Assembly: GCA_016714005.1 (NCBI GenBank) | Contig: JADJOA010000005.1 | Coordinates: 35,027 to 99,026, forward strand | Source of the DNA: Bacteroidota bacterium | Lineage (GTDB): Bacteria > Bacteroidota > Bacteroidia > AKYH767-A > OLB10 | DNA: 64,000 nt | Direction: 5' to 3' | In this document: piece by piece, positions 32,559 through 54,609 of the stretch | Layout: every line of letters starts with the position of its first letter | Numbering within the stretch: position 1 is the stretch's first letter | Notes under the pieces: model-generated | Seen by the model: only the letters and a program-made list of their open reading frames with translations | Told to the model about the DNA's origin: nothing | Databases searched by the model: none | Made by a program: the position numbers and the translations under genes

Positions 32559-32890
32559 AAAGTGTTTGTTTTATGTTGCGAATATAGGTATTAGGCACTA
32601 TGTTTTTAATGCCTTATGTAACACTTATTGTGAGCGAATGGTTGGTTAAAACTCTGTGACGTATAAAACAAAGGCAAGGGCCCTATATATTGATTGATTA
32701 AAGCCTTTATATTATTGTAAAGGTTTTTTTTATATAGTGAGGGCTGAGGATTAGTGCTTACTTTTTGTTTTTCCCATTCGTAAATCGTAAAATTTTCTCG
32801 CGTTTGAATAATAGCGTTTAATGGCTCAATTATATTTTTACTTTTACATAAGCTTCAGAAAATAATTTTTAACACCTTAAACTTAATTAC

Positions 32891-35791
32891 ATGGCTAAAC
32901 TCTACTCTTTAACATCCATTATTCTGTTGGCATTTTGTTTTAATTCAATTGCACAACAATCAACTATAAGGAAAGACAAAATTGTTCCTGTTACAAAGCC
33001 TATAGGGGCTGAAATGCATATCCCGGTAAGGGATATTAACCCAACGGTTGCTGCTCCAGCCAGTTCATCTGCTACACCATTATTTACCGTAATTGGATAT
33101 ACAACCTACGATTTGCAAACCAACAAATCGGCAACCAACTCGCTTTACAATAACGGAAACAACATTGGCGGTGCATGGACCTTTAGTAGTGACCCGGGCG
33201 GCAATTATCCTGACCGTGGAACCGCTGTAAACCATAGCGGCACCAACGGCACAACGTGGCAGGCGCAACCCGGTGTAAGAATTGTAGCCAACCGCACAGG
33301 GTGGGGAAATATTGATATGCTTGGCACCGGTGAATGCTTTCTTGCGCATAAGGGTAATGATTCGTTACAATTTTATTATCGCCCCACGCAGGGAACAGGT
33401 TCATGGGTAGGCTCAGGTGTTCCTTATTCGCTGGTTGCTCCTGTGTGGCCGCGGATGAAAACCGGTGGAGCAAATGGCCAGTCGGTTCATGTTATTGCAT
33501 GTTCTCAGGCACTGCCACCTTTGGTAAACGGAATGTTAAGCCCTATGATGTATTACCGGTCGCTTGATGGCGGAGTAACGTGGGATCAGTCAGATGTTTT
33601 TTTGCCGGGAGTAGATTCAACTCATTATTACGAAATGGCTGCTGATGCCTATGCAATAGATGTAAAAGGAGATATTGTAGCCATTGTGCATGCTGGGTTA
33701 ACTAATGATTTTATTTTGTGGAAGTCATTTGATAATGGATCCACATGGTTAAGAACAGTAATAAAGAATTTTCCTGTTGCTGCCTATAATCAAAACACAA
33801 TGAATACTGATTTAAACCTGGATGGTGCAGGAGATACAGTTGAAACCACCGATGGCAGCGTGGAAGTACTGATAGATAACAACGGAATGGTACATTGCTG
33901 GGTAGGAAGAATGTTTGTGCTACAGGATCCCGGTTCAAGCCTTGGTTATCTTCCAACTTCTGATGGTCTGTTTTACTGGAATGAGCAATTTCCGCTGGCT
34001 AACCCGGTTGTTCTGGTTTCAGCGCTAACCAGCGGAGGGCTACAAAATATTGGTCCCAATATTCCTACATATAATACAAGCCTTTGCAGTATGCCAACTG
34101 CAGGTATTGATAATACGTCCAACATCTATCTTGCATACTCTGCAATAGTTGAAGGCACAATAAATGGTGCCGGGCTTCAAAGTTACCGGAATGTTTATTG
34201 CATTAAATCACCAGATAATGGTCAAACATGGTCAGCACCTGTAAATCTGTCTGATGATAATTTTTCTGAAGCTGTTTACCCGGTAATGGCAAGAGATGCT
34301 GACTCTTTTATTCATATAAAGTGGATGCTTGATGGAGAACCCGGTACAGCATTACTTGAGAGTGACCCCATTAGTACAAATGATATTGTTTATGATCAGG
34401 AAGATACAACAGGATTATTTACATCGTTTGCTCCGCTGCCCCCTCATCAGAATATATTCAGCGGAACAGTATTTTTTGATGCCAATCAAAACGGAGTAAA
34501 AGACCCGGGAGAGAATGGAATGTGGCAGCAAGCAATTTTGCTTTTGCCAAGCAATGTTGTTTACTATACGAGCACCAATGGTGAGTTTAATTTTTTTGCC
34601 GACAGTGGCACTCATACAGTGCAGGTTTTACCGGGTACTAATTTTCAACTGACATCTGCGGCTACATATAACGTTACAGCAGGAGTAGGGCAAATTTTTT
34701 CAAATCTTGATTTTGGTCTTACAGGAATATCTCCTGCGTCAAGTTTAATTTCATGGCTCACAGGGAGTGTGGCACGATGCAACGGCAATGTTAATCATTG
34801 GATTAACTACGCCAATGACGGGAATATGGCACTAAATGGTGTTATTAAATTTGTAAAAGATCCTGATATGACTTTTGTTCAGAGCAACCCGCCATTTAAT
34901 TCCAGTAATGGCGACACACTGTTTTGGAATTATTCTAACCTGCTTCCGTTCGAGCAAAGATCAGTTTTGCTAATATTAAACATTTCACCTCCTGCATTAA
35001 ATCCCGGAGATACGGTTATTAACTGTGCAGAGATTAATTTTCATGTCTCAAGTACAAGCAGTAATTGTCTGCAGCAGATTGTTGTTTGCTCATTCGATCC
35101 TAATGATAAAATGGTTACACCGGCAGGAGTGGGGGCTTCGCATTACACGCTGTTGTCCGATACATTACAATACACTATCCGTTTTCAAAACACAGGAACG
35201 GATACTGCATTTACCGTAAGAATAAAGGATACACTTGACCCTTGGTTTGATTTGAATTCATTTAAGCTGCTGACAGCAAGCCATCCTGTTCAAACAAGAC
35301 TGAATAATGACGGCTCCCTTGAATTTTTATTTGCCAACATTCTGTTACCTGACAGTAATACAAACCAGGCAGCAAGCAACGGGTTTGTGAAATATGCCGT
35401 TAAACCCAAAGCATCAACACCACCATTTACAACAGTTTATAACACTGCATATATATTTTTCGATTTTAATGACCTGATTGCTACCAACACCACTTTTAAT
35501 ACACTTATAAATACGCTTGGTACTAATGATAATGCCACGGGAAATAATGCTGTACTTGTTTATCCAAATCCTTTTAAAGAATACATTCAGATAAAGTTTT
35601 CTAATACAACAGGTAAAGAGCTTAGGTTAGAAATTACCGATTTAGCAGGAAGGGTATTTCATAGAGTGCCTGCTATTACAACTGAGAGTGTACTGATTAG
35701 CACGAAAAATATTTCTGGTGGAATTTATTTTTACAGACTACTCGATATGAGTGATAAAGTTATAGGTAGCGGAAAGATTGTAGCCCAATAA
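32891..35791 (+). CDS. BNR/Asp-box repeat (sialidase-like fold) protein with conserved repeat domain and T9SS C-terminal sorting domain; intact 966-aa ORF
   Basis: Asp-box motifs S-x-D-x-G-x-T-W (SLDGGVTWDQS, SFDNGSTWLRT, SPDNGQTWSAP); signal peptide; C-term 'LVYPNPFKEYIQIKF...ITDLAGRVF...ISGGIYFYRLL' = T9SS CTD. Confidence 0.6.
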   Translation: MAKLYSLTSIILLAFCFNSIAQQSTIRKDKIVPVTKPIGAEMHIPVRDINPTVAAPASSSATPLFTVIGYTTYDLQTNKSATNSLYNNGNNIGGAWTFSSDPGGNYPDRGTAVNHSGTNGTTWQAQPGVRIVANRTGWGNIDMLGTGECFLAHKGNDSLQFYYRPTQGTGSWVGSGVPYSLVAPVWPRMKTGGANGQSVHVIACSQALPPLVNGMLSPMMYYRSLDGGVTWDQSDVFLPGVDSTHYYEMAADAYAIDVKGDIVAIVHAGLTNDFILWKSFDNGSTWLRTVIKNFPVAAYNQNTMNTDLNLDGAGDTVETTDGSVEVLIDNNGMVHCWVGRMFVLQDPGSSLGYLPTSDGLFYWNEQFPLANPVVLVSALTSGGLQNIGPNIPTYNTSLCSMPTAGIDNTSNIYLAYSAIVEGTINGAGLQSYRNVYCIKSPDNGQTWSAPVNLSDDNFSEAVYPVMARDADSFIHIKWMLDGEPGTALLESDPISTNDIVYDQEDTTGLFTSFAPLPPHQNIFSGTVFFDANQNGVKDPGENGMWQQAILLLPSNVVYYTSTNGEFNFFADSGTHTVQVLPGTNFQLTSAATYNVTAGVGQIFSNLDFGLTGISPASSLISWLTGSVARCNGNVNHWINYANDGNMALNGVIKFVKDPDMTFVQSNPPFNSSNGDTLFWNYSNLLPFEQRSVLLILNISPPALNPGDTVINCAEINFHVSSTSSNCLQQIVVCSFDPNDKMVTPAGVGASHYTLLSDTLQYTIRFQNTGTDTAFTVRIKDTLDPWFDLNSFKLLTASHPVQTRLNNDGSLEFLFANILLPDSNTNQAASNGFVKYAVKPKASTPPFTTVYNTAYIFFDFNDLIATNTTFNTLINTLGTNDNATGNNAVLVYPNPFKEYIQIKFSNTTGKELRLEITDLAGRVFHRVPAITTESVLISTKNISGGIYFYRLLDMSDKVIGSGKIVAQ

Positions 35792-35874
35792 TAAAGCAAT
35801 AGATGCATAGCCAGCGCGTTGTTAAAAGTATACCAGAGTTTGATTTTTATAAATAACTGTATTTTTATTCTACA

Positions 35875-36743
35875 ATGTTCAACATCCTTATATCAAAAAA
35901 CTTCGCATGGACTTGCTTTAGACTAGAGCGAGTAAGAACTACGACAAAAAACATTATTGTTTATGCTTTATTTCTGTGCATTTCATGCAACAATGTAAAT
36001 GGGCAAAGCAGCTCACTTTCTGAAGAATATCTTCGGTTAGCAGATGATTTTAAAAAAAGTATGAAACAGGACAGTGCAATAAAATATTATGAAAAAGCAG
36101 CAGTAGAATTTCAAGCCTTGGGAAACGTTGAAAAATTTGTGTACTCATATAACCATATAGGAATTATACTAACAAGGCAGGATAACTATGAAAAGTCAAA
36201 ATTCTATTTGGAGAAAGCGCTCTCAATAGGTCTTTCTTCGCTTGATAGCAACAACCTGGTAATTGCAACCACTTACATTAGCTTAGGAGTAAATTATAAT
36301 GCAGAAGAAAATTACAGCCGGTCATTATTTTATCATAATAAAGCTCTTGCAATACGGCTACTAAAACTGGGGGAATATCATGCTGATGTGGCAACAAGTT
36401 ATGGGAACATAGGAAACGTTTATTTTAATAGTAAGGACTACGAAAAAGCTATTGATGCCCATTTAAAAGCAATGGAAATAAGGGAAAAGCTTTTGGTAAC
36501 ACTGGCGTAGAGGTTATTCAATCTTTTACCAACTTGGGAAACGCTTACAGGGAGAAAAAGAGCTATGAGACATCATTAGCATATTTTGAAAAAGCTTTGC
36601 AGAATAAAGTTAAACAAGTTGGACAAGGGCATAAAGACCTGGTAAAACTTTATAAAAATATAAGTGACGTGTATTACTTAATGAACAACAGAGAGCAAGG
36701 TGATTTTTATAAAATAAAATCAGAGGAGATTTTGAAGAATTGA
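35875..36743 (+). CDS. Tetratricopeptide-repeat protein (TPR_12-like), frameshift near 36510
   Basis: Repeated TPR units (ATTYISLGVNYNAEENYSRSLFYHNKALAIR; ATSYGNIGNVYFNSKDYEKAIDAHLKAMEIREK; FTNLGNAYREKKSYETSLAYFEKALQ). Confidence 0.5.
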
Positions 36744-36782
36744 AATTATTTTGAGGACGAGTGGGATTTTAAAAGTATCTCT

Positions 36783-37166
36783 CTAAGTATTTTTCCCTTT
36801 ATACTTCACAAAAATATTTATCCATATCAACCTTGCCAGCCTAAAAGTAAGTGGCACCAACAAAACAGATGGAACAATAATTCCAAGTAAAAAATACATG
36901 AGGGGAAGGTTATCAGGCGCAAGCACCTCTATGGCTATCCATAGCGTTACCATTAGGGCAACATTAAGTGCATAGCTTACAAACATAGCTCCAAAATAAA
37001 AACCTGTTTCGGGCATAAAGCTGCCTTTGCAAACACTGCAATTGTTTTCCATTTTATCGAACTGACGCAGGTTAAACGGGTTAGAAGAGTTAAAAAAATG
37101 CCCCTCATGGCAATGCGGGCATTTATTATTTAGTATGCTGTATAGCTTTGAACCTTTACCTATCAT
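36783..37166 (-). CDS. DUF983-like zinc-ribbon membrane protein
   Basis: Two CxxC pairs (CPHCHEG ... CSVCKG) followed by two TM helices; size 127 aa, typical of DUF983. Confidence 0.45.
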   Translation of the reverse strand: MIGKGSKLYSILNNKCPHCHEGHFFNSSNPFNLRQFDKMENNCSVCKGSFMPETGFYFGAMFVSYALNVALMVTLWIAIEVLAPDNLPLMYFLLGIIVPSVLLVPLTFRLARLIWINIFVKYKGKNT

Positions 37167-38956: not shown

Positions 38957-41334
38957 TTATTGCAGCACTACCTTAACTTGCTTGTTAAGGTAAGCGCTCC
39001 TTACCTGTAGCATATAAACTCCTTTTGCATAACCACTCAAATCAAGCACTGATGAATTCAATCCTTGGGAAGTATGAAGAGTATTGATTAAAACCACTTT
39101 GCCTGAAAAATCTGTTAGCGACAGGCTAACGGGCTCAGCGCTTTCCGTCATCAGTTCAATATTTAAAGTGGAGCTTGTAGGGTTAGGGAAAACATTCAGC
39201 CCTTCATTAGAGGCAACAGAAGTATTACCCGCCACCCTGCAAACCGGGGAAGCATTGTAAGTACGAGTACCGTTGCCACAACCATTGGTGGTGATAAGGC
39301 TAACGGTGGCGTTGCCTGTGTTCCAGTCAACTACCAGGTTATTGGTGCCTTGCCCGTTTATGATGGTAGCGGCTGAAGAAGGAATGATACTCCATACAAG
39401 ATTGTAAACTCCTGTAACCCCAGTTAGGTTACCTGAAAGGTAATACCTGCATCGTTATTACACCATACAACCGGGTTGGCGGTAATGGCCCCCGATGTGT
39501 TTGGAGCGCCTTTGGTAGTAATTGTTCTTGGCAAGCTTAACCCGCAACTGTTTTGCGATTGTACGGTTACAGTGCCCGTGGTAAATCCAGATGAAGGGAA
39601 AGTAACGGCAATGGCATTGCTGGCGCTGGTGCCTGTTGCACCTGCTGGCAAAGACCATACATAGCCGGTGGCACCTGCTACGGCAGGGCAACTGTAGTTA
39701 ACTGTTTGTCCGCATACGCCATTGCTGTTACCGCTAATGGCAGCAGGCATTGCAGGCAGCCCTGTGGTAACGCTCTTGCAGCGCTGCACTGTTTGCACCC
39801 CACATACGCTTGTAGCCTTAACGCACAGGTTAGAACTTGTAAAGCCTGTATTAAAGGTAACATTAATGCTGTTGGTTGACGAACTACCCGAAGTAGAACC
39901 TGGCAAAGTCCACTGATAGCTGGCTGCACCTGCTGCAGCAGGCACCGTATAAAGCTGAGTGCTGCCGGGGCATGCAACGGCAGAACCTGCAATGGTGCTT
40001 AAAGCAACAGTAGTGGTGCTGACATTTAAAGTACGTGCAGCGCTGACAAAACAAGCCACATTAGCCGTAACACTTATAGCACCCGTGGTAAACACAGGCG
40101 GCATTTGAATGTTTACGGAAGTAGCCGCAGTGGTAAGCGTGTTTCCACCACCGTTAATGCTTGCACCAGCGGGAGCAGTCCATGTATAATTATCGGCACC
40201 GGTAACCGGAGCAATAGAGTAGGGGTATGATTGAGCAGCACAAGCCACAGTAGTGCCGGTAATGGCAGCGGGCGTGCCAACAGAGCGCCTGATGCTAACG
40301 GCACGGTATAAAGAACTGCCACAGGCATTGGCAGCCGTAACGCGAATGTTATACGTACTGTTGGTGGTAGTGCCAATGTCAATAACCTGGGTGTTGGTAG
40401 TAGAAACCGGATTAAATGTAATGCCATTACTGCCCGGAGCATTAGCCCAGGTGTAAGAGGTTACATTGGCATTTGGAGTTACAGAAAGAGAAACACCATT
40501 TAACGGAGGACAAACACTAGGAGGAGCGCCACTAACAACCGATGGCTGCAACGGCAGGGTAGTGCGCACAGTAACAGCCAGCGGACTAGGTGCTGACTGG
40601 CACCCGCCCACAGCCGTGGTGGTTACCAGATTAAGGGTAACGGTGCCAGTTGTTTTATCATTATTGCCGGGAGTGTAAACCGCATTGGCAATGTTGGCAT
40701 TGTTAAATGTACCATCACCTGAAGTTGACCAGGTATAGCTGCTGCCACCAACCGATGTACCATTAAGGAATACAGGATTGGGTGCGCATATTTCTTGTGC
40801 TGCACCTGCTATGGCAGTGGGTGTTTCCACAATTTGAATATTAGTTCCATTGTCTGTTCCTACCTTGTTAGGCGCGCTTGCCACTACACGTATGCGGTAG
40901 CCGTTGCCTGCGGTGGTGTTGGCAGGTATGGTAACGCTTATGTTGCTGTTAGAAGCATTACCAGCCAGTGTGCCAATGGTATCGGGCGAGGCAAAGCTGC
41001 CTGTGGCATCGCTTAACTCGGCAGTAAAGGTGTTGCCACCTCCTATATCTATAGCTGTATAGGGCAGGCTAAAGGTGCTGCCTGCACATATTGCTGCAGC
41101 TACCGTGCCGGTGCGTATTTGCTCGCCCGGTTGCTGGAAGCCCTGGGTGATGATGTTACCTCCTGCGCTAAGCGAAGGAATAACGGTTTCGCCAATAGTA
41201 AAGGTTACCATGCTGCTGCCACCAGTGAGGGTGCCTCCGGCTGTGGAGATTGCCTTGCGGCTGATGGATTGCGAATTGGCAATTGGCAATTGACTATTGG
41301 CAATGAGCAATGCTATGATTAGTTTTTTTGTCAT
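38957..41334 (-). CDS. Thr/Ala/Gly-rich cell-surface protein with PKD-like repeats and T9SS C-terminal sorting domain, frameshift near 39300
   Basis: Signal peptide; N-term '...TIGETVIPSLSAGGNIITQGFQQP'; repeated Cys-containing Ig/PKD-like modules; final ORF 38957-39235 = T9SS CTD (VFPNPTSSTLNIEL...LTDFSGKVV...AKGVYMLQVRS). Locally elevated GC from the Ala/Gly/Thr codon bias. Confidence 0.5.
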
Positions 41335-41523: not shown

Positions 41524-44500
41524 TTACTTTTTGGTTTCTTCTTTTGGTGCATTTTGCTTTGTCCATGCCTCGCGGTATTCAGAAGGAACATCGTTAACAT
41601 TGGGATAAAGGAATTTATCAGTGTAAGCACCGGGTGCTTTCTTCAGGCGTAAGTCTTCGTAACCTTTGCGCTTGGCTACCATGCGGTAGGCAAAGGCAGT
41701 GCCATTGGCTGCTGAAGGTGCATGCACGGTAAAGGTGTTGCCATTCATTTCTATCCACCAGTTGCCCATGTTGCCGTAAGGAGTAATAAAGGCATGCATA
41801 GGGTGAGTGGCATTAATGGTAACGGTTTGTTCATAATCGGCAGCTACGGTAACTGTTGCCACTCCGTTTTGTATGGTGCCTTTGCCAAAGTCTTCAAACC
41901 AGTTTTCTGGCGACTCCTGGCTGTAAAGCTCCTTAGGCCCATCAGGCGTTTTAACGGTGGCAGCCTTGGTGCCTGAGCAGGTAAAGTTACCTGCTGCGTA
42001 AACACCATAAGCATTGGTGCCGCTGGCAGTGCCATAAATTCCAATGTTTGCTGTACCTCCGCCAGCATTACCATAAACCCCATAACGGTTTCCGGAACCG
42101 GCAAGGTAGCAGCGGCATTAACACCCATATAACCACCTACAGCTCCTACTCCATAACCATAAAAGGGTGTGTTGTTGGTTGAGCCATAAACACCATAATA
42201 ATCTGCGCTGGTTATTGTGTTAATACCATTTACAACTCTGCTAGTGTTGCCTGTGACATCTAATTTATTGGAAGGTATATTTGTTCCTATGCCCACATTG
42301 CCTTCTATAATAGCTCCATTGGCAGGTGCTGAAGTGGTGCCGCTGTATGTTGCACCTACTGCCAAGCCGCCTTCAACATCTAATTTGCTGGCAGGTGTGG
42401 TAGTGCCTAAGCCTACATTGCCACCATTGTTATGTATATTGCTTGAGTTTACTATCCATGATGTGCCATTCCAATAAGGCGTGTTGCCTGCTGCTGTGCC
42501 GCTTGTTAATAAACCTGCGGGGCCTGTGGGGCCTGCAGGACCAGTTGCACCTGTGGGGCCTGCAGGACCAGTTGCACCTGTAGGGCCAGCCGGACCTTGT
42601 GGGCCAACTAAGCCTGCTGTTGATTGCCAACTTGCCAAGCCTGCTGCATCCGACATTAAAACCTTGCCTGCACCCTGTGTGCCATCAGTAATCTTTACAG
42701 TACCTATTACATCTAACTTAGCAGCAGGGGTAGTAGTACCTAAGCTAAGATTACCATTAAAATCTATTTGAGCCTTGGGAGTTGCAAAATTGGCACCTGT
42801 GTAAAACCTTAAATAGTCGCTTCCATAGGTACCTCCAACAATTGCCTGGCCGGGCGTACCTGGCCGCAAACGTAAGCGATACATCATTTGCAGCCGGAAA
42901 CACTGCAGTAGTATTACTATTGGTTAATGATAAACCTGTGCGGCTCATAATAGCAGCACCTGAAACTGCATTCACTTCTGTTTCTAATTTAGCATCCGGG
43001 CTAAGAGTACCTATACCCACGTTTCCATTTCCATGTACACGCATTTTAGTATTAGACACGGCATTGCCTGCAACCCTAAAGTCAATATAAGCATTTGCGC
43101 CATATACATTGGCTAAATAAACTCCATTGTCTGAGGTAATTTCGCCCAGTTTACCCATTTTATAGCTTTGGCTGCCAAAAGAAATGGCATCGCCATCTCC
43201 GGCTGCATCTGCGCGGCTTACATCCAATTTGGTACCCGGTGATGTTGTTCCAATACCCACGTTTCCGCCATTGTTAAATATATTGCTTGAGTTTGTTATC
43301 CATGATGTGCCATCCCAATAAGGCGTATTGCCTGCTGCTGTGCCGCTGGCAATGGTGCCACCCGGAGTAACCCATGATGCCAAGCCTGCTGCATCAGATG
43401 TTAACACTTTGCCTGCACCGGGCGCACCACCTGTAATTTTAACCTGCCCTGCTACTTCTAATTTGCTGGTGGGGGCAGATGTGCCAATACCCACATTGCC
43501 GCTATTTGTATTACTAACATTATTTCCTGATGTGCTCATTGAGCTACAATAGCCGTAGTTGCCCTGTTACGGGGTTAAGCGTAATATTTAAAGCACCGCA
43601 TTCCATATTTAACACCTTTAAAGTATTAGTTGGCTGATCATTTACCACATACGCATAATTGCCCAATACAGTAACACACATTGGATCACTACCTGTTGCC
43701 ACCGAGTTTGTTACTGTTGGCGATGCCGGATTGGTAATGTCAATCACCTGCAAAGTACCGCTACTGTTATTTACCACATAAGCCTTATTGCCCGATAGCG
43801 ATACGGATGCCGGACCGTTAGCGGTTGTTACCGTGCCTGCCACTGTTGGCGATGCCGGATTGGTAATGTTAATAACCTGCATAGAATTGCTACCCTGATT
43901 AACCACATACGCATAATTGCCCGATACGGCTACCGATACAGTAGCTGACCCCGTTGTTACCGTGCCCACCACTGATGGTGATGCCGGATTACTAATATCA
44001 ATCACCTGCATGCTTCCTGAATAATTTGTCACATAAGCATAATTGCCGCTACTGCTACATTAACTGGGGTACTGTTGGTTGTTACCGTACCTACTATGGT
44101 TGGCGTTGCCGGGTTAGTTATGTTAAGCACTTTCATATTATGGCTAGACTGGTTAACAACGTATGCATAATTGCCCGAAATAGCCACTGAACGAGGAAGA
44201 ATTCCTGTATTTGTGCTGCTAACAAGGCTTGGTGAGGCAGGGTTTGAAATGTTAATTACTTTAAGGTGCCCGACAAAAGTGGTTACATACGCATAATTTC
44301 CCGAAACAGCTATTGAAACAGGTGAAACTAAGCCAGACAAGGAACCTGTAACTGTTGGAGCTGCGGCATTGCTTATGTTTATAACCTGCATAGTCCCTGA
44401 GGAATAATTTACTACATAAGCATATGTGCCTGATACAGCAACGTAGTGTGGACGGTCGTCAGTGCCAACAGAGCCTACAACAGAAAGACAGGATGGTATA

Positions 44501-45202
44501 GGGGTACTTAATATATCAGTGGCTGATAAACTTTTCCAGCTTGCCAAGCCTGTTGCAGAAGATGATAAAACCTTGCCAGCACCCTGTGTGCCATCGGTTA
44601 TTTTTACTGCGCCTGCCACATCAAGCTTAGCGGCAGGGGTTGCAGTGCCCACGCCTACGTTGGTTCCGTTGTTAAACAAAGCATTGTCTGCCACCCATGC
44701 AGTGCCGTTCCAGCGCATGGTGTTGCCGGGGCTGTGCCTGCGGGTAAGTCGGCACTCTTTCCTGCAAACAAAGCATAAGGCACGCTGTTAAGCTGCGTAG
44801 TGCCCATGTCGGTATAGCTTGTGCCTCCGGCAGGGTCCATCTCTACCTGTATAAACTTGGCGCCATTGCCCCAGTTTACTGCGGCAAGGGTTCCTATGCC
44901 TGGTGTGCCTGTGCCTATGTTTATATTAAACAAGCCCAGGGCTGTTGTTGTAGGCGTATGTGTTTCCTGGTACACTATGGTGCCGCCTGCTGTTACATCG
45001 CGTAAGCTTATGCGCAGGCCTATGGCTTGTGTAGGCAGAATTTCGCCACTGGCATTACGCGCCACTCCCGGTAAGGGGATGGCATTGGGCGATGGGCTAT
45101 TGTGGCAAAGCCATTAGCCATAAAGCAAAAACCATAAAGGCTGTTTGCCATTGTCTTAGTACTTGGTACTGATGTCCGGGTACTGTTTTGTGTGTGTTGC
45201 AT
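41524..45202 (-). CDS. Large repetitive surface protein, paralog A: signal peptide, conserved N-domain, LVIVD beta-propeller repeats, tail-fibre-like NVGIGTTxPxxKLDV repeats, collagen-like Gly-X-Y tract, conserved C-terminal domain; fragmented by many frameshifts
   Basis: Seven co-linear minus-strand ORFs. LVIVD repeats: 'VAVSGNYAYVVNQGSNSMQVINITNPASPTVAGTVTT' x ~7 (43544-44718). Collagen tract '[31 protein letters not shown]' (42430-42600). Ends nearly identical at DNA level to paralog B (5' ~44760-45200 vs 49530-49970; 3' 41524-41860 vs 45800-46140). Confidence 0.55.
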
Positions 45203-45253
45203 ATTTGTTTGATATTTAGTTATGGTGTTATTTGTTGTTAGTGTTGCTTTTGC

Positions 45254-45338
45254 TTAATCCCTTAATTACCTCAATCCCTTAATTACCTCAATCACTCAAT
45301 TACCTCAATCCCTCAATTGCCTCAATCCCCCAATTACC
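45254..45338. repeat. 17-nt tandem repeat (ccttaattacctcaatc) x ~4.7 located ~50 nt upstream of paralog A start codon
   Basis: Direct reading: ccttaattacctcaatc / ccttaattacctcaatc / actcaattacctcaatc / cctcaattgcctcaatc / ccccaattacc. Confidence 0.85.
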
Positions 45339-45535
45339 TTTTCTTTTAACGCCACAAAGATGCCGTGCTAAACCGCGCCCGTCAATCGTTCATTCCAATG
45401 AATTGGGTGTGGTGATGGGTGTGGTTTTGTAGTTGATATCAATGAGGGCAGGCGCACAAGCGTTTGTAAAAGCACCATGCAGGCAGGTCCCCTTTAGGGA
45501 TTTGGGGGTTAAACGCAAAGCAGACTTACCGGCAA

Positions 45536-45574
45536 ACCTGCAAACCCGTGAGGTTTTATAAACCTCGCAGGTTG
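45536..45574. repeat. Imperfect palindrome (aaacccgtgaggttt-tat-aaacctcgcaggttt), copy 1 of 2
   Basis: 12-bp stem with one mismatch and one G-U pair; same motif recurs at 45750-45786. Confidence 0.6.
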
Positions 45575-45749
45575 TTTAAAATTAATCCCGGAGGGATGAA
45601 ATTATTGTAGAATAAACAATGATTATGCGCTGAAACCCCGTAGGGGTGGTATGTCATCCCTACAGGATTTTTGTACCGGCTGCTCATCTTGCTGTTCTAA
45701 CATAATTTCATGCCTACGGCATTAGGCACAGGATAGTATTTTATTTGGA

Positions 45750-45786
45750 TTAAACCCGTGAGGTTTTATAAACCTCGCGGGTTTAA
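45750..45786. terminator. Palindromic hairpin (ttaaacccgtgaggttt-tat-aaacctcgcgggtttaa) immediately 3' of paralog B; possible terminator
   Basis: Stem of about 16 bp with one non-Watson-Crick position, 3-nt loop, 12 nt beyond the stop of gene 45798-49970(-); weak U-tract, so terminator function uncertain. Confidence 0.4.
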
Positions 45787-45797
45787 TGGGATGTGGG

Positions 45798-48700
45798 TTA
45801 TTTAGCTGCCGGGCTTTGCTCCATTGGTGCATTTTGCTTTAACCATGCTTCGCGGTATTCAGAAGGAACATCGTTAACATTGGGATAAAGGAATTTATCG
45901 GTGTAAGCACCCGGTGCTTTCTTCAGGCGTAAGTCTTCGTAACCTTTGCGCTTGGCTACCATGCGGTAGTCAAAGGCAGTGCCGTTGGCAGCAGTGGGTG
46001 CATGTACGGTAAAGGTGTTGCCGTTGTACTCAATCCACCAGTTGCCCATGTTGCCATTGGGTGTAATAAATGCATGCATAGGGTGTGTGGCGTTTATGGT
46101 TACGGTTTGTTCATAATCGGGCGCTACGGTAACGGTTGCCACTCCGTTTTGTATAGTGCCTTTGCCAAAGTCTTCAAACCAGTTTTCTGGCGACTCCTGG
46201 CTGTAAAGCTCCTTAGGCCCATCAGGCGTTTTAACGGTGGCAGCCTTGGTGCCTGTGCAGGTAAAGTTACCTGCTGCGTAAACACCATAAGCACCTGTGC
46301 CGCTGGCAGTGCCATAAACCCCATAGTTGTTTGTTGTACCTCCGGTAGCATTACCCAAAACCCCATAACGGCTTCCGGTACCGGCAAGGGTAGCAGCGGC
46401 ATTAACACCAATATATCCACCTAAAGCCCCTACTCCATAACCATAAAAGGGTGTGTTGTTGGTTGAGCCAAAAACACCATAATAATCTGCGCTGGTTATT
46501 GTGTTAATACCATTTACAACTCTGTTAGTGTTGCCTGTTACATCTAATTTATTGGAAGGTGCTGTGGTTCCAATACCCACGTTACCATTTCCATGTACAC
46601 GCATTTTAGTATTAGCCACAGCATTGCCTGCAACCCTAAAATCAATATAAGCATTTGCTCCATATACATTGGCTAAATAAACTCCATTGTCTGAGGTAAT
46701 TTCGCCCAGTTTACCCATTTTATAGCTCTGGCTGCCAAAAGAAATGGCATCGCCATCTCCGGCTGCATCTGCGCGGCTTACATCCAATTTGGTATCCGGT
46801 GATGTTGTTCCAATACCCACATTACCATTTCCTTGAATACGCATTAATTCATTAGAAGTGGTTGCAGATGCAGAGGCATAAAAAATATGGTTCGCTCCAG
46901 TATGTTCTACCTGGTATCGGAGAGCACCACCGTTTATTCCGAATCCATAAAATTGATGTTCGTTATTAGCCGCTTCATACAGAACCACTTTACGGTTTGT
47001 ACTGCATTAGATAATTGAAGTTGTGCATTAGGTGTGGTTGTTCCAATACCACGTTTCCACCATTGTTAAATATATTGCTTGAGTTTACTATCCATGATGT
47101 GCCATTCCAATAAGGCGTGTTGCCTGCCTGCTGCTGCCAAAAGGTTGGGGCCGGCAGGGCCGATAGGTCCTTGTGGGCCTGTGGCTCCAGGTTGCTCCAG
47201 TTGGGCCAGCAGGACCTGTAGCTCCTGTTGGGCCAGTTGGGCGAGTAGGGCCTGTTGCTCCAGTTGCACCAGTAGGTCCTGTGGCACCGGCACCAATCGA
47301 ATGCCATCCAAGGGAAGGGCTATTCATTTTTGTAGTAAAAACTAAATCGTATGCAGATACATTAACATTGTTATAGTAAAAACTTCCACTGGCATAAGGA
47401 TTGGTTGTATAAAGCAGGAATCCAAACGAATTTCCAGTAATTACCTCAAACGTATATGTGGTACCTGCCGTCAAAGCAGGAGGGCTTGTAATAACAAATT
47501 CTTGAAATGAACCAGATGCGCCCGCAACTGCTATTGACTGCGTTGCTAAAATAGCCCCCCGGTACCTACACCACTACGAATGTTCAGAGTTCCAGTTCCA
47601 GCATCGCCATCTCTCTTTAAAGAAATAGAATATAATGTGCCCGTTATATTGGGTACAAAAGATTGCGCGTGGTTACCATTACCATAGGCTGTTCCTCCAG
47701 CAGCACCGCTACTAACATCATTACTTGGTGTGACTCCATTGCCGATAGCTGTTGTATATGCCTGCGTGGTATTGTTTGTGGTGTTGTGAATAACCATGCC
47801 GGGTGTGGCAATAAGCGCATCGCGCTGGGTTTGTGTCATGCGGGGTACTAACACGGCACCGGTGGTGCTGGTTACATCAAGTGCTGCGCTGGTGTTGGGG
47901 CGTGGTGCCTATGCCTATGCGTGTGCCGTTATTATATAAGTTGCTTGAGTTGGTTATCCATGATGTGCCATCCCAATAAGGCGTGTTGCCTGCTGCTGCT
48001 CCACTGGTTAATAAACCTGCAGGGCCTGTTGGGCCTGCAGGACCAGTTGCACCTGTGGGGCCTGCAGGACCAGTTGCACCTGTAGGGCCAGCCGGACCTT
48101 GGCCAACTAAGCCTGCTGTTGATTGCCAACTTGCCAAGCCTGCTGCATCCGACATTAAAACCTTGCCTGCACCCCTGTGTGCCATCAGTAATCTTTACAG
48201 TACCTATTACATCTAACTTAGCAGCAGGGGTAGTAGTACCTAAGCTAAGATTACCATTAAAATCTATTTGAGCCTTGGGAGTTGCAAAATTGGCACCTGT
48301 GTAAAACCTTAAATAGTCGCTTCCATAGGTACCTCCAACAATTGCCTGGCCGGGCGTACCTGGCCGCCCAAACGTAAGCGATACATCATTTGCAGCCGGA
48401 AACACTGCAGTAGTATTACTATTGGTTAATGATAAACCTGTGCGGCTCATAATAGCAGCACCTGAAACTGCATTCACTTCTGTTTCTAATTTAGCATCCG
48501 GGCTAAGAGTACCTATACCCACATTGCCACCATTGTTATGTATATTGCTTGAGTTTACTATCCAGGAAGTGCCATTCCAATAAGGCGTGTTGCCTGCTGC
48601 TGCACCCGGGTTTAAGCCCGATGCGCCTTGTATGCCTTGTATGCCTTGTGCACCCGTTGCACCTGTTGGGCCGGTTGCTCTGTTAAACCAATTGGACCCT

Positions 48701-49970
48701 GAGCACCTGTTGCCCCTGTGGGGCCAGTTGCACCTGTTGCACCTGTTGGGCCGGTAGCTCCGGTTGCACCCGTTGCACCTGTTGCACCGGGAGAACCTAC
48801 ACCTACTGAATACCAGCCAAGGGATGTACCGCCTGTCATTTTAGTTTTAAAATATAAATCAGAGGCAGATTGGATGGCTCCGTTAGCGTATGCATTGCCA
48901 CCGGCATAAGGATTAGCTGTAGAAACTCTGAATCCGAATGAACCTCCTGTAACAACCTCAAAAGTATAAACGTTGCCCGACACCAAAGCAGGAGCGGCTG
49001 TAATAATAAATTCTTGTTCGGTACCCGCAGCAGCAGAAACAGTTATTGACTGTGTAGCTATAATAGCGCCCCCTGTGCCGGCTCCGTTGCGAATGTTCAT
49101 GGTATTAGTGCCACTACCTCCATCAATCAATAAAGTAATAGAGTATAAACTGCCTGTTACCGTGGGAACAAAGGATTGCCCATAAGTTACACCACCCAAG
49201 GTTGAAGTCCCTACCGTTTGGGAAATATTAACCGTAGGTGTGCCGGTGGTGCCCATTGTATAAGCCTGCGTGGTATTGCTGGTGGTGTTGTGTATAACCA
49301 TGCCGGGTGTGGCAACAAGTGCATCGCGCTGGGTTTGTGTCATGCGGGGCAATAACACGGCACCGGTAGTAGATGTTACATCAAGTGCTGCGCTGGTGTT
49401 GGGGCTTGTGGTTCCTATGCCTATGCGGCTTCCGTTGTTAAACAAAGTATTGTCGGCCACCCATGCAGTGCCGTTCCAGCGCATGGTGTTGCCGTTGGCT
49501 GTGCCTGCGGGCAAATCAGAACTCTTGCCTGCAAACAAAGCATAAGGCACGCTGTTAAGCTGCGTAGTGCCCATGTCGGTATAGCTTGTGCCTCCGGCAG
49601 GGTCCATTTCTACTTGTATAAACTTGGCGCCATTGCCCCAGTTTACTGCGGCAAGGGTTCCTATGCCCGGTGTGCCTGTGCCTATGTTTATATTAAACAA
49701 GCCAAGGGCTGTTGTTGTAGGCGTATGTGTTTCCTGGTACACTATGGTGCCGCCTGCTGTTACATCGCGTAAGCTTATGCGCAGGCCTATGGCTTGTGTA
49801 GGCAGAATTTCGCCACTGGCATTACGCGCCACTCCCTGGTAAGGGATGGCATTGGGCGATTGGGCTATTGTGGCAAAAGCCATTAGCCATAAAGCAAAAA
49901 CCATAAAGGCTGTTGCCATTGTCTTAGTACTTGGTACTGATGTACGGGTACTGTTTAGTGTGTGTTGCAT
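45798..49970 (-). CDS. Large repetitive surface protein, paralog B: signal peptide, conserved N-domain, two '[12 protein letters not shown]' modules each followed by a collagen-like (GATGPT)n tract, tail-fibre-like NVGIGTTxPxxKLDV repeats, conserved C-terminal domain; fragmented by frameshifts
   Basis: 48612-49970(-) N-terminal 452 aa incl. '[31 protein letters not shown]'; 47546-47854 and 47088-47474 form a second copy of the module; 45798-46988 holds the tail-fibre-like repeats and C-terminal domain (…[36 protein letters not shown]…) almost identical to 41524-41862. Confidence 0.55.
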
Positions 49971-50020
49971 ATTTGTTTGATGTTTAGTTATGGTGTTATT
50001 TGTTGTTAGTGTTGCTTTTA

Positions 50021-50056
50021 CTTAATCACTTAATTACCTCAATCCCCCAATTACCT
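50021..50056. repeat. Same 17-nt repeat family upstream of paralog B, only ~1.7 copies
   Basis: cttaatc acttaattacctcaatc ccccaattacc, followed (50057-50160) by a leader that is near-identical to 45340-45420. Confidence 0.8.
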
Positions 50057-50160
50057 TTTCTTTTAACGCCACAAAGATGCCGTGCTAAACCGCGCCCGTC
50101 AATCGTTCATTCCAATGAATTGGTGTGGTGATGGGTGTGGTTTTGTAGTTGATATCAATG

Positions 50161-50520
50161 ATGTAAGGGCAGATTCCTCACTGCGTTCGGAGTGACAAAC
50201 CTATTTGCTCTTAGAGATTCCTCACTGCGTTCGGAATGACAGTTGGTTGGTTTTATAAAGACTGAAATGGGAAAAGGAAGGGCGCGCTTTGCGCGCCCTT
50301 CCTTTTCCCATTTCAGTCACACGCCAGCTCAGCCCCTGTCATTCCGAACCCGCTTTTCGCGGGTGAGGAATCTCTCATTTCACAAGCATCGCACTGTCAT
50401 TCCGAAACGTAGTGAAGAATCTTTTCTTCCATGCAGTACATTGCAGTGTCATTCCGAGTGAAACGAGGAATCTACTCTTTAGCTTCACCAACATTAACAG
50501 ATTCCTCACTGCGTTAGTAA
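50161..50520. repeat. Cluster of 26-nt palindromic repeat units (gattcctcactgcgttcggaatgaca and its reverse complement) around a 27-bp-stem perfect palindrome; MITE/REP-like
   Basis: Forward units at 50172-50197 and 50215-50240; perfect palindrome 50263-50319 (ctgaaatgggaaaaggaagggcgcgc-tttg-gcgcgcccttccttttcccatttcag); inverted units at 50337-50372, 50395-50422 and 50447-50472; partial forward unit 50501-50516. Each unit conserves an ATTCC...GGAAT stem with a variable loop. Confidence 0.7.
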
Positions 50521-50614
50521 TCTAGGTATTTACTTAATCAATTACTTTTGCTTTTACCAATCTTACTCAGTAAAAAATAGAGATGTATTTAACTTTAATT
50601 CAGTAACAACTTAA

Positions 50615-50935
50615 ATGTTAATACACAACTACTTTGTTTATGTCTTAACTAATGCGAGCCACAAGGTTTTATACACTGGTGTAACAAACGATTTGACAAG
50701 AAGAATCTTTGAACACAAGAAAAAATTGGTTAAGGGATTTACCTCTAAATACAACACCAATAAGCTCGTCTATTTTGAACGATTTGATTATATAGATTTA
50801 GCTATTCATCGCGAAAAACAAATTAAGGGCTATTCACGTGAAAAAAAGGAATCCCTAATTAACTCATTTAATCCTTCATGGATGGAATTATATGACAATG
50901 GTAAAAATAGTGCTTCCTACCTAGTTAACTTATAA
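50615..50935 (+). CDS. GIY-YIG nuclease family protein (small, YhbQ/UPF0213-like)
   Basis: 'YFVYVLTNASHKVLYTGVTNDLTRRIFEHKK' = GIY-YIG motif (Y-x10-Y, then R, E); 106 aa; embedded between two clusters of the 26-nt palindromic repeats. Confidence 0.65.
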   Translation: MLIHNYFVYVLTNASHKVLYTGVTNDLTRRIFEHKKKLVKGFTSKYNTNKLVYFERFDYIDLAIHREKQIKGYSREKKESLINSFNPSWMELYDNGKNSASYLVNL

Positions 50936-50964
50936 AGATGCTAAAGCAGCGGCAAAGGCATTCC

Positions 50965-51380
50965 GCACCACCTATAGAAGATGCCTCAGTACGTTCGGAA
51001 TGACAATCGTATTTGTTCTTGAAGGATTCCTCACTGCGTTCCCAATGACAAACGTATTTGCTCGTAGAGATTCCTCACTGCGTTCCCAATGACAAACGTA
51101 TTTGCTCGTAGAGATTCCTCACTGCGTTCGGAATGACAAGAGCAGCGCGTGTTGGTGAGAGAAAGGGAAAAGCAAAGGCGAGCTTTGCTCGCCTTTGCTT
51201 TTCCCTTTTCTCTCTTGATATCTTCAACCAACTGTCATTCCGAACGCAGTGAGGAATCTATGCTTTTCCCTTTTCTCTCTTGATATCATCAACCAACCGT
51301 CATTCCGAACGCAGTGAGGAATCTCGTTTTCCATATAGTACATTGCACTTTCATTCCGAATGCATTTAGGAATCTCCTTA
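50965..51380. repeat. Second cluster of the 26-nt palindromic units incl. a 44-nt tandem duplication and a ~150-bp MITE-like element with perfect 26-bp terminal inverted repeats
   Basis: Forward units 51025-51050, 51069-51094 (44-nt tandem repeat), 51113-51138; perfect palindrome 51160-51217 (gagagaaagggaaaagcaaaggcgagc-tttg-gctcgcctttgcttttccctttctctc); inverted units 51233-51258 (exact reverse complement of 51113-51138), 51299-51324, 51350-51375. The right half (~64 nt) is tandemly duplicated (51195-51258 / 51261-51324). Confidence 0.7.
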
Positions 51381-51461
51381 CTTTAGTCAACTTCAAAAAA
51401 CCGAAGCCTTGTCAGATCAATTAGCATATAACAGCAAATCTCTTTTCTTTGTATCACCGCT

Positions 51462-54400
51462 ATGAAGCACCTCTGCTGTTTCCTTTCCTTCCTCATCCTC
51501 TGCCTCAGTACACATGCACAGTACAGCCCCGACTCTGTGCGCATGAACTTTGACAAAATCACCGTTGAAGACGGACTCTCGCAGGGCATGGTGCAATGCA
51601 TCATACAGGACAAAGATGGCTACATGTGGTTTTCAAGCAAGGATGGGCTTAACCGGTACGATGGCTACCACATCACCGTGTTTCGCAACAATCCCGATGA
51701 CCCGCACTCCCTGCCCGATAACTATGTAACCTTTATGCAGCAAGATGATAAAGGCAACTTTTGGATAGGAACCAGTTCAAAAGGCGTTTGCCTGTATGAT
51801 AAACGCAGCGAAAGGTTTTTTCCCATAGCTGCCGTAACCAATGCCCTTCAAAAAACGAAGATATTTATGCACTTAAAGTAGATAATAACAAACTATTAAT
51901 TTCCACCAATAACAGTGCCCATGCCTTTGATGTAAGCCGGCTTAAAGAAGGTAACTTTACCAATGAAAACCTCAGCCGCATCAAACTCCTGTATAACTAT
52001 AATGCATCGCAACCCTTACCATCACGAAAGTATCAACTGGGGCATGGCATTACACAGTTATGGTTAAGTGATAGTTCTTTATGGACTTACTTTCTTGACT
52101 CTGTTTGTATAACCACCTTCAGCAGTTCTTTTACCACGCCTGCATATACTTGTTTACCCGCCACACAACTGGGCACAAACGGAACCGAACGATACAGCAT
52201 TGCGGAATTACCGGGCATAAACAAGGTTACTCTTTTATGCTTAGATAAGCTTATCTTGTATGATACCAAACTGCGTAAGGTTACTTATACTACCGCTATC
52301 ACCAAAAATAATATTGGACAAGGAAGTTGTTTTACCGATAAGCAAAACAGGTTTTATTTTGATACTACCACAGGCAATTATTGTTTTAACCCTGCCACGT
52401 TTGAACTAACTCCTGTTGTAAGTAACATGGGTTCTTTCATTATCGCACTTAATAGCTGCACCGACCGCAGCGGCACCTTGTGGGTTGGCAGCAGCGGGCA
52501 TGGTATTTTTAAATACAACGCCCGCAAGCAATACTTTCGTAACCCGGGCATAGGCAGTTGGTATTATGCACAGGGCAAAACGGGTGAAATACTCATGTTT
52601 GACCCTGATGTTTTCCTGAAACGATTAAACCCTGTTACAGGTAAGGTTATTGGCACTGTTCCTTTTCCTAACAAAAAACCCGATGGCACTCTTTGGAATG
52701 ATGGGAGAGTATTAATAAATGGTATGCAATGCGATAAAGACGGAATAATTTGGATGGAATGCAATGACAAACCAATTTCTGAATATTTGCTTTGGTACAA
52801 TACGGCAAACAAGGCAATAGGCATAAAACAAATAGCTACAGCAGGCAGAGAACAGTATCGTAAATTGTTTATTGATAACAACAACCGCCTTTGGCTTGTT
52901 AAACACAATGCCAACCACAGCCGTAGTTGGATTGAGTTTGATAAAACCACCAAAGAACCTGTAAGAGAATACAAATTCCCAATTGAAAAGATTTAAACAC
53001 ATACCCCTTTGTATCTGATATGTGGCAGGATGCACAAGGTGTGTTTTGGTTTGGCACCATACAGGGCTTGTTTAGTTTTAATGAAAAGAAGAATGAATGG
53101 CATCAATGGAAAAACATTCCAAACAACAATGCTTCCCTTAGCGGGGATATGATATTCTCCCTTTGCCCCGATGCCAAACAACCCGATAAATATTTATGGG
53201 TAGGTACAAACGGTACTGGACTTAACCGTTTTGAGTACGCCACCGGCAAATGCATACGCTACACCGAAGCAGATGGACTGCCCAATAACGTTGTGTACTC
53301 CATGCTTAATGACAATGCAGGCAACTTATGGCTAAGCACTAATAACGGATTAAGTTGCATGCTCTCCGGCAAAGACTTCCGCAACTTTACTACCGATGAT
53401 GGCTTACCCGGCAATGAGTTTAACCGGTTCGAAAAGCTCAAACTAAGTTCGGACGAATTATTGTTTGGGGGTGTGGCAGGCGGCACTATCTTTAATCCTG
53501 CCGAAATACTAAAACAAAACCCTGCACCTAATTTGGTGCTTACCGGGCTATCTATCTACAACAAACCTGCAACCCACACCACCGATAGCACCATTATTCA
53601 AGCACCCATTGGGTATGCAAACACCATCACCCTTCCGCACAACAAAAACATGTTCACGCTGGAGTTTGCAGCATTAGAGTCATCACCTGCCAACAAAAAA
53701 CAATATGCTTACCGGTTATTGGGCTTTGACAACAACTGGATACCCAATGGTGCAAAGAATGCCGCCACCTATACCAACCTGCCTCACGGCAGCTACACCT
53801 TTCAGGTAAAAGGCGCAGGCAGCGATGGTGTTTGGAACGAGCAAGGCGCATCCATCAACATTATCATTCTTCCGGCCTGGTATCAAACGTGGTGGTTTAA
53901 GTTGGCAGTGTTGCTTGCTGTGGCAGGAGGTTTGTATGCACTTTACCGCTACCGCCTCAGGCAGCAACTCAAACTCCTCACCGTGCGCAACCGCATAGCA
54001 GCCGACTTGCACGATGAAATTGGCAGCACCCTCAGCAGCATTGCCCTGTCAAGTACTGTTATCCAAAACAAATTGAATGGCAGCGCCCCCGAAGTAAACA
54101 CACTGCTCAACCAAATTAGCACCAACACCAATAACATGATGGAAGCCATGAGCGACATTGTGTGGACCATCAACACCAAAAACGACAGGTTTGATAACGT
54201 CATCAACCGCATGCGCGCCTTTGCCATCGAGATATTAGAACCTAAGGATTGCCTCGTTCACTTTAATGCTTCCGAACAGCTAAACAACCTTACCCTTGAC
54301 ATGGCGCAGCGCAAGAACCTTTACTTGTTGTTTAAAGAAACCATTAACAATGCTGCCAAGTATTCGCATTGTCAAAACGTGTGGATTGACATTACCATGA

Positions 54401-54609
54401 ACGGAAGCAACAAGCTTATGCTAAAGATTAAAGACGATGGCGTTGGGTTTGCCACACATGCCACTGTAGGTAGCAATGGTAAAAGCGAAGCCTTTGGTGG
54501 CAACGGCTTAGCCAGCATGCGCAAACGCGCCCACGAGTTGGAAGGAACAGTAACCATCAATTCAGAAATAAACAAAGGAACTGAAGTGGTATTAGAGTTT
54601 AAGATTTAA
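51462..54609 (+). CDS. Hybrid-architecture sensor histidine kinase: signal peptide, two-component-regulator beta-propeller repeats, Y_Y_Y domain, TM helix, HisKA_3 + HATPase; broken into >=4 ORFs by frameshifts
   Basis: Propeller repeats ('YMWFSSKDGLNRYDGYHITVF', 'FWIGTSSKGVCLYD', 'LWVGTNGTGLNRFEY', 'LWLSTNNGLSC'); Y_Y_Y-like 'KKQYAYRLLGFDNNWIPNGAKNAATYTNLPHGSYTFQVKG'; TM 'WWFKLAVLLAVAGGLYALY'; H-box 'RIAADLHDEIGSTLSSIAL'; G-boxes 'DDGVGF', 'GNGLASMRKRAHELEG'. Confidence 0.7.

Follow-up and report, generated by a model that had tools for sequence, protein, structure and literature searches.

Two tandemly duplicated tail-fibre-like genes in a 64,000-nt stretch of Bacteroidota DNA (hereafter the window) are preceded by five and two units, respectively, of an imperfect 17-nt direct repeat. 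We read this array, with a probability of roughly 0.6, as a lineage-specific leader minisatellite that arose through slippage and is either neutral or, at the most, affects how strongly the genes are expressed. An earlier note on this DNA had instead presented the repeat as a classic phase-variation arrangement, in which copy-number change alters how far an upstream element stands from the core promoter.

Anatomy of the repeat and its predicted promoter

The genes and arrays concerned are as follows.

41524-45202, minus strand: paralog A, tail-fibre-like with collagen and LVIVD repeats, in at least six reading-frame pieces
45798-49970, minus strand: paralog B, first 452 codons intact, followed by several frameshifts, in at least five pieces
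45254-45338, minus strand: array A, five 17-nt units (Tandem Repeats Finder, unit search and alignment); promoter-proximal first, A1 GGTAATTGGGGGATTGA, A2 GGCAATTGAGGGATTGA, A3 GGTAATTGAGTGATTGA, A4 GGTAATTAAGGGATTGA and A5 GGTAATTAAGGGATTAA
50022-50055, minus strand: array B, two 17-nt units, B1 GGTAATTGGGGGATTGA (identical to A1) and B2 GGTAATTAAGTGATTAA

On the coding strand the 17-nt unit reads GGTAATTGAGGGATTGA and consists of an 8-mer, GGTAATTGA, and a 9-mer, GGGATTGA, with the cores TAATTGA/GATTGA. Tandem Repeats Finder called positions 45256-45339 with a period of 17, 4.9 copies, 91% matches and a score of 133, together with a weaker 8-nt sub-period, and gave no report for array B. With up to three mismatches allowed, GGTAATTGAGGGATTGA occurs seven times in the 64-kb window, only ever on the minus strand: a contiguous run of five at 45254-45338 and a pair at 50022-50055. 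In shuffled sequence the mean was 0.15, and not one of 100 shuffles reached seven. The repeat noticed upstream of both paralogs is therefore real. It was rightly placed before the genes, and its orientation required correction: both genes lie on the minus strand, with start codons at 45202 (A) and 49970 (B). A relaxed motif scan of the 64 kb found no further arrays of the 17-nt type beyond these two. An inverted partner, hairpin or invertible element at the locus was considered and rejected, given that all seven matches share one strand and that no other arrays occur. On neither strand does an ORF of at least 50 aa reach into 45203-45797.

Pairwise alignment of the two upstream regions placed a single 51-nt gap in B, equal to exactly three units, within sequence that is otherwise near-identical between A and B, and the distance from array to ATG is 51 nt in both paralogs. 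The difference implied by the previous estimate of about 4.7 and 1.7 copies thus stands, while the counts themselves become 5.0 and 2.0. Slipped-strand mispairing, as was proposed, would be the obvious route to such a whole-unit difference. The units are not pure. Those of array A differ from one another by one to three mismatches, with no identical pair, and the longest exactly 17-nt-periodic stretch is 21 nt. B1 and B2 differ at 4 of 17 positions (76% identical), the longest periodic match being 8 nt, and array B is barely a tandem repeat. Overall, units are 76-94% identical, and neither array has the pure, identical units of an SSR contingency locus. The coding strand of array A contains one C in 85 nt.

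The -33 TTTG and -7 TAnnTTTG elements form the Bacteroidota housekeeping consensus, established from Bacteroides promoters, and both upstream regions were scanned for them with a spacing of about 19-21 nt. The resulting predictions and the segments around them are listed below.

45355-45362, minus strand: predicted -7 box of paralog A, CATCTTTG, matching TAnnTTTG at 5/6 positions
45383-45386, minus strand: predicted -33 ATTG of paralog A, within GATTGAC, 20 nt upstream of the -7 box
50072-50079, minus strand: predicted -7 box of paralog B, CATCTTTG, in a segment identical to that of A
50100-50103, minus strand: predicted -33 ATTG of paralog B
45339-45443 (B: 50056-50160), minus strand: upstream block of about 105 nt common to both paralogs, holding the predicted promoter
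45203-45253 (B: 49971-50021), minus strand: A/C-rich distal leader from array to start codon, alignable with the leader at homolog locus L010
45389-45402 (A) and 50106-50119 (B), strandless: perfect 14-bp palindrome TTCATTGGAATGAA, abutting the predicted -33 element

The sole candidate scoring at least 5/6 and common to both paralogs, -33 ATTG followed after 20 nt by the -7 box CATCTTTG, lies upstream of the array. The 33-nt segment that contains it, GATTGAC-N18-CATCTTTG, is identical in A and B, and departs from the consensus at the first position of the -7 box (C, not T) and in its -33 element (ATTG, not TTTG). GATTGAC is invariant in a five-sequence alignment. The homolog P0001, at locus L010, has GATTGAC-N18-TAGTTTTG, with a perfect TAnnTTTG and exactly the spacing of A and B, and directly after this promoter L010 has an A-rich leader that aligns with the distal leader of the window and contains no array. 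In both upstream regions, no candidate of at least 5/6 was found within or downstream of the array, no TTTG occurs between array and ATG, and a scan for sigma-70-type promoters returned no site on the strand of the genes. Across the window, TAnnTTTG lies within 200 nt of the start of only 3 of 34 mechanically defined ORFs, a set in which starts are over-extended and many genes are frameshifted or sit within operons, so that the count says little about how general the motif is in this genome.

Judged by consensus and homology, this promoter would initiate transcription near 45347-45350 in A and 50064-50067 in B, giving leaders of about 147 and 96 nt, respectively, in which the array would occupy about +10 to +96 (A) and +10 to +45 (B). 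Because the predicted promoter lies upstream of the array and is homologous to that of L010, with no candidate within or downstream of the array, we take the array to be transcribed leader. It is thus predicted to fall between the TSS and the start codon, and neither between promoter hexamers nor between a regulator site and the core promoter; from within the 5' UTR, it could not change promoter geometry. The segments 45340-45443 and 50057-50160, described before as a conserved leader downstream of the array, are indeed conserved; however, they lie upstream of it and hold the predicted promoter. Similarity between A and B ends at the distal edge of this block (alignment; repeat families D14 and D16). 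The palindrome TTCATTGGAATGAA is kept at the related loci L014 and L015, is absent from L010, and is possibly a transcription-factor or other regulator site.

Two ways in which the leader might act as a structured nucleic acid were examined and rejected. Dinucleotide-shuffled sequences fold more stably than the predicted leader RNAs, whose z-scores are +1.4 (A) and +2.3 (B). Rfam gave nothing over the array or leader, its 28 weak matches all falling at generic hairpins elsewhere in the region, and a structured RNA or riboswitch was discarded. A G-quadruplex array was likewise discarded, on the grounds of a low G4Hunter score (0.87-0.91) and the lack of any quadruplex in the minimum-energy fold calculated with quadruplex energies in ViennaRNA.

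The paralogs and their locus in related genomes

Two loci were recovered when metagenome contigs were scanned with the 22 nt adjoining the array at its promoter end. L014 is 97.6% identical to the window across the upstream region of paralog B, and L015, a 209-kb contig that ends about 90 nt upstream of the array, matches the window at 98.4-98.7% identity in its flanks. Not a single base of the two-unit array differs among window B, L014 and L015, whereas their flanks contain substitutions and are 2-6% divergent. Among these four alleles, which come from three assemblies only, two units occur in three and five units once, in window A. Two units are the commoner state and probably the ancestral one. 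In its 5' gene region L015 matches A and B alike at about 94% identity, so its gene is assignable to neither; as the gene at the A position has two units where the window has five, this could be read as between-strain variation.

Upstream of homologs at all eight more distant loci (L010, L012, L016, L018, L019, L025, L026 and L028) the array is absent, and it is therefore specific to this species-level lineage. Database searches returned no full-length protein homolog closer than 53% identity, the closest being P0001 (L010). An exact look-up of a flanking 127-aa protein retrieved five Logan contigs of the same organism, each of 4.3 kb or less and stopping before the locus; the runs with the identical protein are SRR17347231, SRR17347220, SRR28981381, SRR28981378 and SRR17347209. 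A scan of viral contigs for the repeat gave no match. The P0003 gene at L016 is preceded, 150-420 nt before its start codon (about 1581-1850), by a tandem repeat of another kind, each unit being about 47 nt long and containing a GTGAGC...CTCAC hairpin.

The first 452 codons of paralog B encode a signal peptide extended N-terminally by an S/T/K-rich stretch, then an N-terminal domain and the start of a collagen Gly-X-Y tract. The homolog at L012 has a similar S/T/K-rich extension after its first ATG, and for this reason the first ATG of paralog B is likely its start. The ortholog at L015 is intact: it encodes 1006 aa with collagen repeats and, at the C terminus, a Peptidase_S74 chaperone domain, and a PKD_6/Por_Secre_tail gene comes next. 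On this basis, the products of A and B read as secreted, tail-fibre-like collagen-repeat surface proteins, in agreement with the surface role previously ascribed to them. In distant relatives, a Reg_prop/Y_Y_Y/HisKA_3 sensor kinase again adjoins one or two tail-fibre-like genes, with a PKD_6/T9SS gene after these. In the window, this kinase (51462-54609, plus strand) is the divergent neighbor of paralog B, as it is of the collagen-like gene at L010, and is a candidate regulator of the locus.

Set against L015 7488-10508, the tail-fibre-like genes at 41524-49970 form a mosaic: their 5' ends are 94% identical, and the middle can hardly be aligned. Two tandem copies are present in the window, and L015 has one intact gene before the contig ends. 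Judged from these alignments, the locus is a hypervariable, recombining surface-protein locus. The minus strand at 48625-48649 has three copies of ATACAAGGC, which encode YKA repeats in the open frame and Gly-Ile-Gln collagen triplets in another, and they mark the frameshift that ends the 452-codon ORF of paralog B. L015, otherwise collinear with the window, lacks a segment of about 4.1 kb (32666-36793) whose products are a 966-aa DUF7619/Por_Secre_tail protein (32891-35791) and part of a TPR protein (35875-36510). Upstream of paralog B, about 2 kb of non-coding DNA (50160-52250) is packed with REP-like GTCATTCCGAACGCAGTGAGGAATCT elements. This stretch, which L014 has as well, contains tandem repeats with periods of 44 nt (50979-51139) and 65 nt (51196-51324), two long hairpins (about 50250-50320 and 51150-51220) and a small GIY-YIG ORF (50615-50935).

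Frameshifts are frequent in conserved genes of the window, suggesting that either the assembly is error-prone or the locus is decaying. The translational GTPase gene typA (5577-7387) is split at about 5800-5936, with about 75 N-terminal residues in the ORF at 5577-5936 and the rest at 5834-7387, and the sensor kinase is spread over three ORFs (51462-51881, 52256-52996 and 53020-54609). Downstream of A, the PKD_6 gene (39424-41334, minus strand) encodes 636 aa and lacks the Por_Secre_tail domain present in its 792-aa L015 ortholog, a single gap in the DNA alignment with L015 accounting for the truncation. Within the first 620 nt, six 1-nt indels are private to paralog A, mostly in short homopolymer contexts and with five crowded into 80 nt; paralog B has no such indels relative to L015.

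Known repeat systems and competing readings

Promoter-spacing SSR contingency loci include porA, opc and nadA of Neisseria meningitidis and hifA/B of Haemophilus influenzae. Their tracts, composed of pure units of 1-9 nt, lie between -35 and -10 or between an activator or repressor site and the core promoter, and vary among near-identical isolates. The window shares with them a tandem repeat near the promoter of a surface or host-interaction gene (signal peptide, collagen, LVIVD and, in the L015 ortholog, Peptidase_S74) and a whole-unit copy difference, but in the window the predicted TSS precedes the array, the units are 17 nt long and 76-94% identical, and one allele is constant across flanks that diverge by 2-6%. 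Repeats between promoter and start codon are found in H. influenzae hmw1A/hmw2A (7 bp) and in the 5' UTR of Moraxella catarrhalis uspA2 (AGAT), where units are short and pure, the effect of copy number on expression has been demonstrated, and variation occurs within strains. As in those genes, a repeat in the predicted leader of an adhesin-like surface gene differs in unit number between paralogous or allelic copies; unlike theirs, the units in the window are 17 nt and impure. Surface structures in Bacteroides undergo phase variation by invertible promoters. The present locus likewise concerns surface-component expression in Bacteroidota, but no inverted repeats flank its promoter block, and the window holds no opposite-strand partner of the array.

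Direct repeats of the heptamer TAACTGA lie between genes or in leaders of Beggiatoaceae, cyanobacteria and five Bacteroidetes, usually forward-oriented and close before start codons, without a demonstrated function; present in one species, they are missing from the same intergenic region of a close relative (MacGregor 2015, PMC4679880). The arrays of the window are also head-to-tail intergenic direct repeats, forward upstream of an ORF and missing in relatives, and their half-unit TAATTGA is, by a relatedness judged visually, one base off TAACTGA. They differ in having a period of 17 (8+9) rather than 7, in lying 51 nt from the start codon rather than within a few nucleotides, and in numbering two in 64 kb as opposed to a genome-wide set. 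The G-rich intergenic heptamers GGGNATC of Xanthomonas and GGGGA(C/T)T of Nostoc form G-quadruplexes and are likewise without demonstrated function (Rehm et al. 2015, PMC4692102). Like these, the window repeats are G-rich, C-poor, non-coding 7-9-nt elements near ORF starts, transcribed (here by prediction) and variable in copy number, and their unit contains GGGGGATT and GGGATT. However, runs of three or more G are 14-31 nt apart in the window repeats, which, with the low G4Hunter score and the quadruplex-free fold, show no convincing quadruplex potential.

Under the minisatellite reading, the array would lie inside the transcribed 5' leader of the two duplicated genes, beginning about 10 nt past the putative TSS of a promoter identical in both copies. 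Replication slippage or unequal exchange would have produced one copy-number change, leaving two units in B and the orthologs and five in A, and the three extra units would lengthen the leader of A from about 96 to about 147 nt with the promoter untouched. The array forms no stable RNA structure. It would most likely be neutral or nearly so, and any effect would be quantitative and post-initiation, on promoter escape, mRNA stability or translation, rather than on/off. The impure units fit a slow minisatellite, its single recorded copy-number change coming with several point substitutions. Against slowness stands the 21-nt exactly periodic stretch in A, which is still open to slippage, and a moderate rate of change is possible given four alleles from three assemblies. 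Against neutrality stands the recurrence of similar purine-rich 8/9-mer arrays in intergenic DNA of unrelated Bacteroidota, which hints that such sequences may not be purely neutral.

The switch put forward in the earlier note, whereby the array sits within the promoter or between an activating element and the core promoter and slippage turns the protein on or off, draws on the whole-unit difference near the promoter of a surface-protein gene and on the possible regulator palindrome upstream. Palindrome and both predicted promoter elements nevertheless lie together on one side of the array, which separates none of them and could not shift their spacing; nothing promoter-like lies downstream of it, and the array-less homolog at L010 has its promoter at the equivalent place. 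With imperfect units and a two-unit allele that is identical in three assemblies, the locus does not resemble a classic phase-variation arrangement, and we consider such a switch very improbable. Expression tuning, also suggested before, accordingly loses its promoter-spacing route, and tuning through the length of the 5' UTR is conceivable but finds no support here. A functional leader in which the copy number of the transcribed array adjusts each paralog after initiation, via promoter escape, mRNA half-life, ribosome loading or one site per unit for an RNA- or DNA-binding protein, is unlikely but not negligible. It would parallel the hmw1A/hmw2A and uspA2 repeats and would fit the position of the array in the predicted 5' UTR, the differing copy numbers behind an identical promoter, and the synteny of the sensor kinase in the window and L010, and post-transcriptional regulators have been suggested to act at leader heptamer repeats, those of five Bacteroidetes among them (PMC4679880). 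Yet the gene family does without the array at eight other homolog loci, the units are degenerate, the two-unit allele is unchanged in three assemblies, and the five-unit allele fronts the heavily frameshifted copy, while the occurrence of other Bacteroidota arrays in either gene orientation argues against a strand-specific mRNA element. GAGG motifs, which resemble Shine-Dalgarno cores and number five in array A and one in array B, would favor such a role, but Shine-Dalgarno pairing is known to be little used by Bacteroidota.

The five-unit allele might also be an assembly or consensus artefact, adjoining as it does the worst-affected stretch of paralog A. It is known from this window alone, in which frameshifts split typA and the sensor kinase, shorten the PKD_6 gene and break both paralogs, and the A-specific 1-nt indels cluster close by. 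The errors elsewhere, however, are 1-nt indels and not 51-nt insertions. A base-calling artefact is unlikely because the extra DNA amounts to three whole units, each with its own substitutions and so unlike simple stutter, and both flanks align cleanly with B; we accordingly give an artefactual origin little credence.

Purine-rich repeats in other Bacteroidota

For a wider view, a degenerate 24-mer spanning 1.4 units was used to scan a collection of one genome per species, to which the genome of the window does not belong. Nine loci were detected in seven MAGs, against an estimated chance expectation of about 0.3, and the MAGs belonged to Balneolales, Chryseobacterium, Chitinophagaceae, Chitinophagales, Cytophagales and one unclassified Bacteroidota. 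Each of the nine arrays is an intergenic run of 8/9-mers resembling GGTAATTGAGG/GGGATTGAGG (L001-L009; for example L001 3833-3945, L005 4177-7942, L007 4372-4665 and L008 3918-4057), and they occur in either orientation relative to neighboring genes. In a motif-cluster scan, four of the nine had a clear inverted partner about 30-130 nt away. Such inverted pairs would form long hairpins, and one 8-kb Balneolales locus has five arrays. Because arrays of this type occur in unrelated Bacteroidota, the motif is not special to the tail-fibre-like gene family, and they may constitute an undescribed dispersed repeat class. That this class is phylum-wide and recognized by a conserved binding factor, with unit number in the 5' UTR setting the expression level of each paralog, seems to us a long shot; if true, surface proteins would be tuned by slippage in a phylum otherwise known for invertible promoters. 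Should the array tune expression at all, environmental Bacteroidota would offer a rare instance of a surface protein controlled by repeat number.

As it stands, the finding is mostly cautionary: a copy-number difference beside a promoter does not by itself amount to a phase-variation switch. For that, the repeat has to lie between promoter elements, be pure and vary among close relatives. Here it is predicted to lie outside the promoter and is impure; as for variation, one allele is unchanged in three assemblies and the other is recorded once. The purine-rich short repeats of Bacteroidota intergenic DNA, for their part, may merit a survey of their own.
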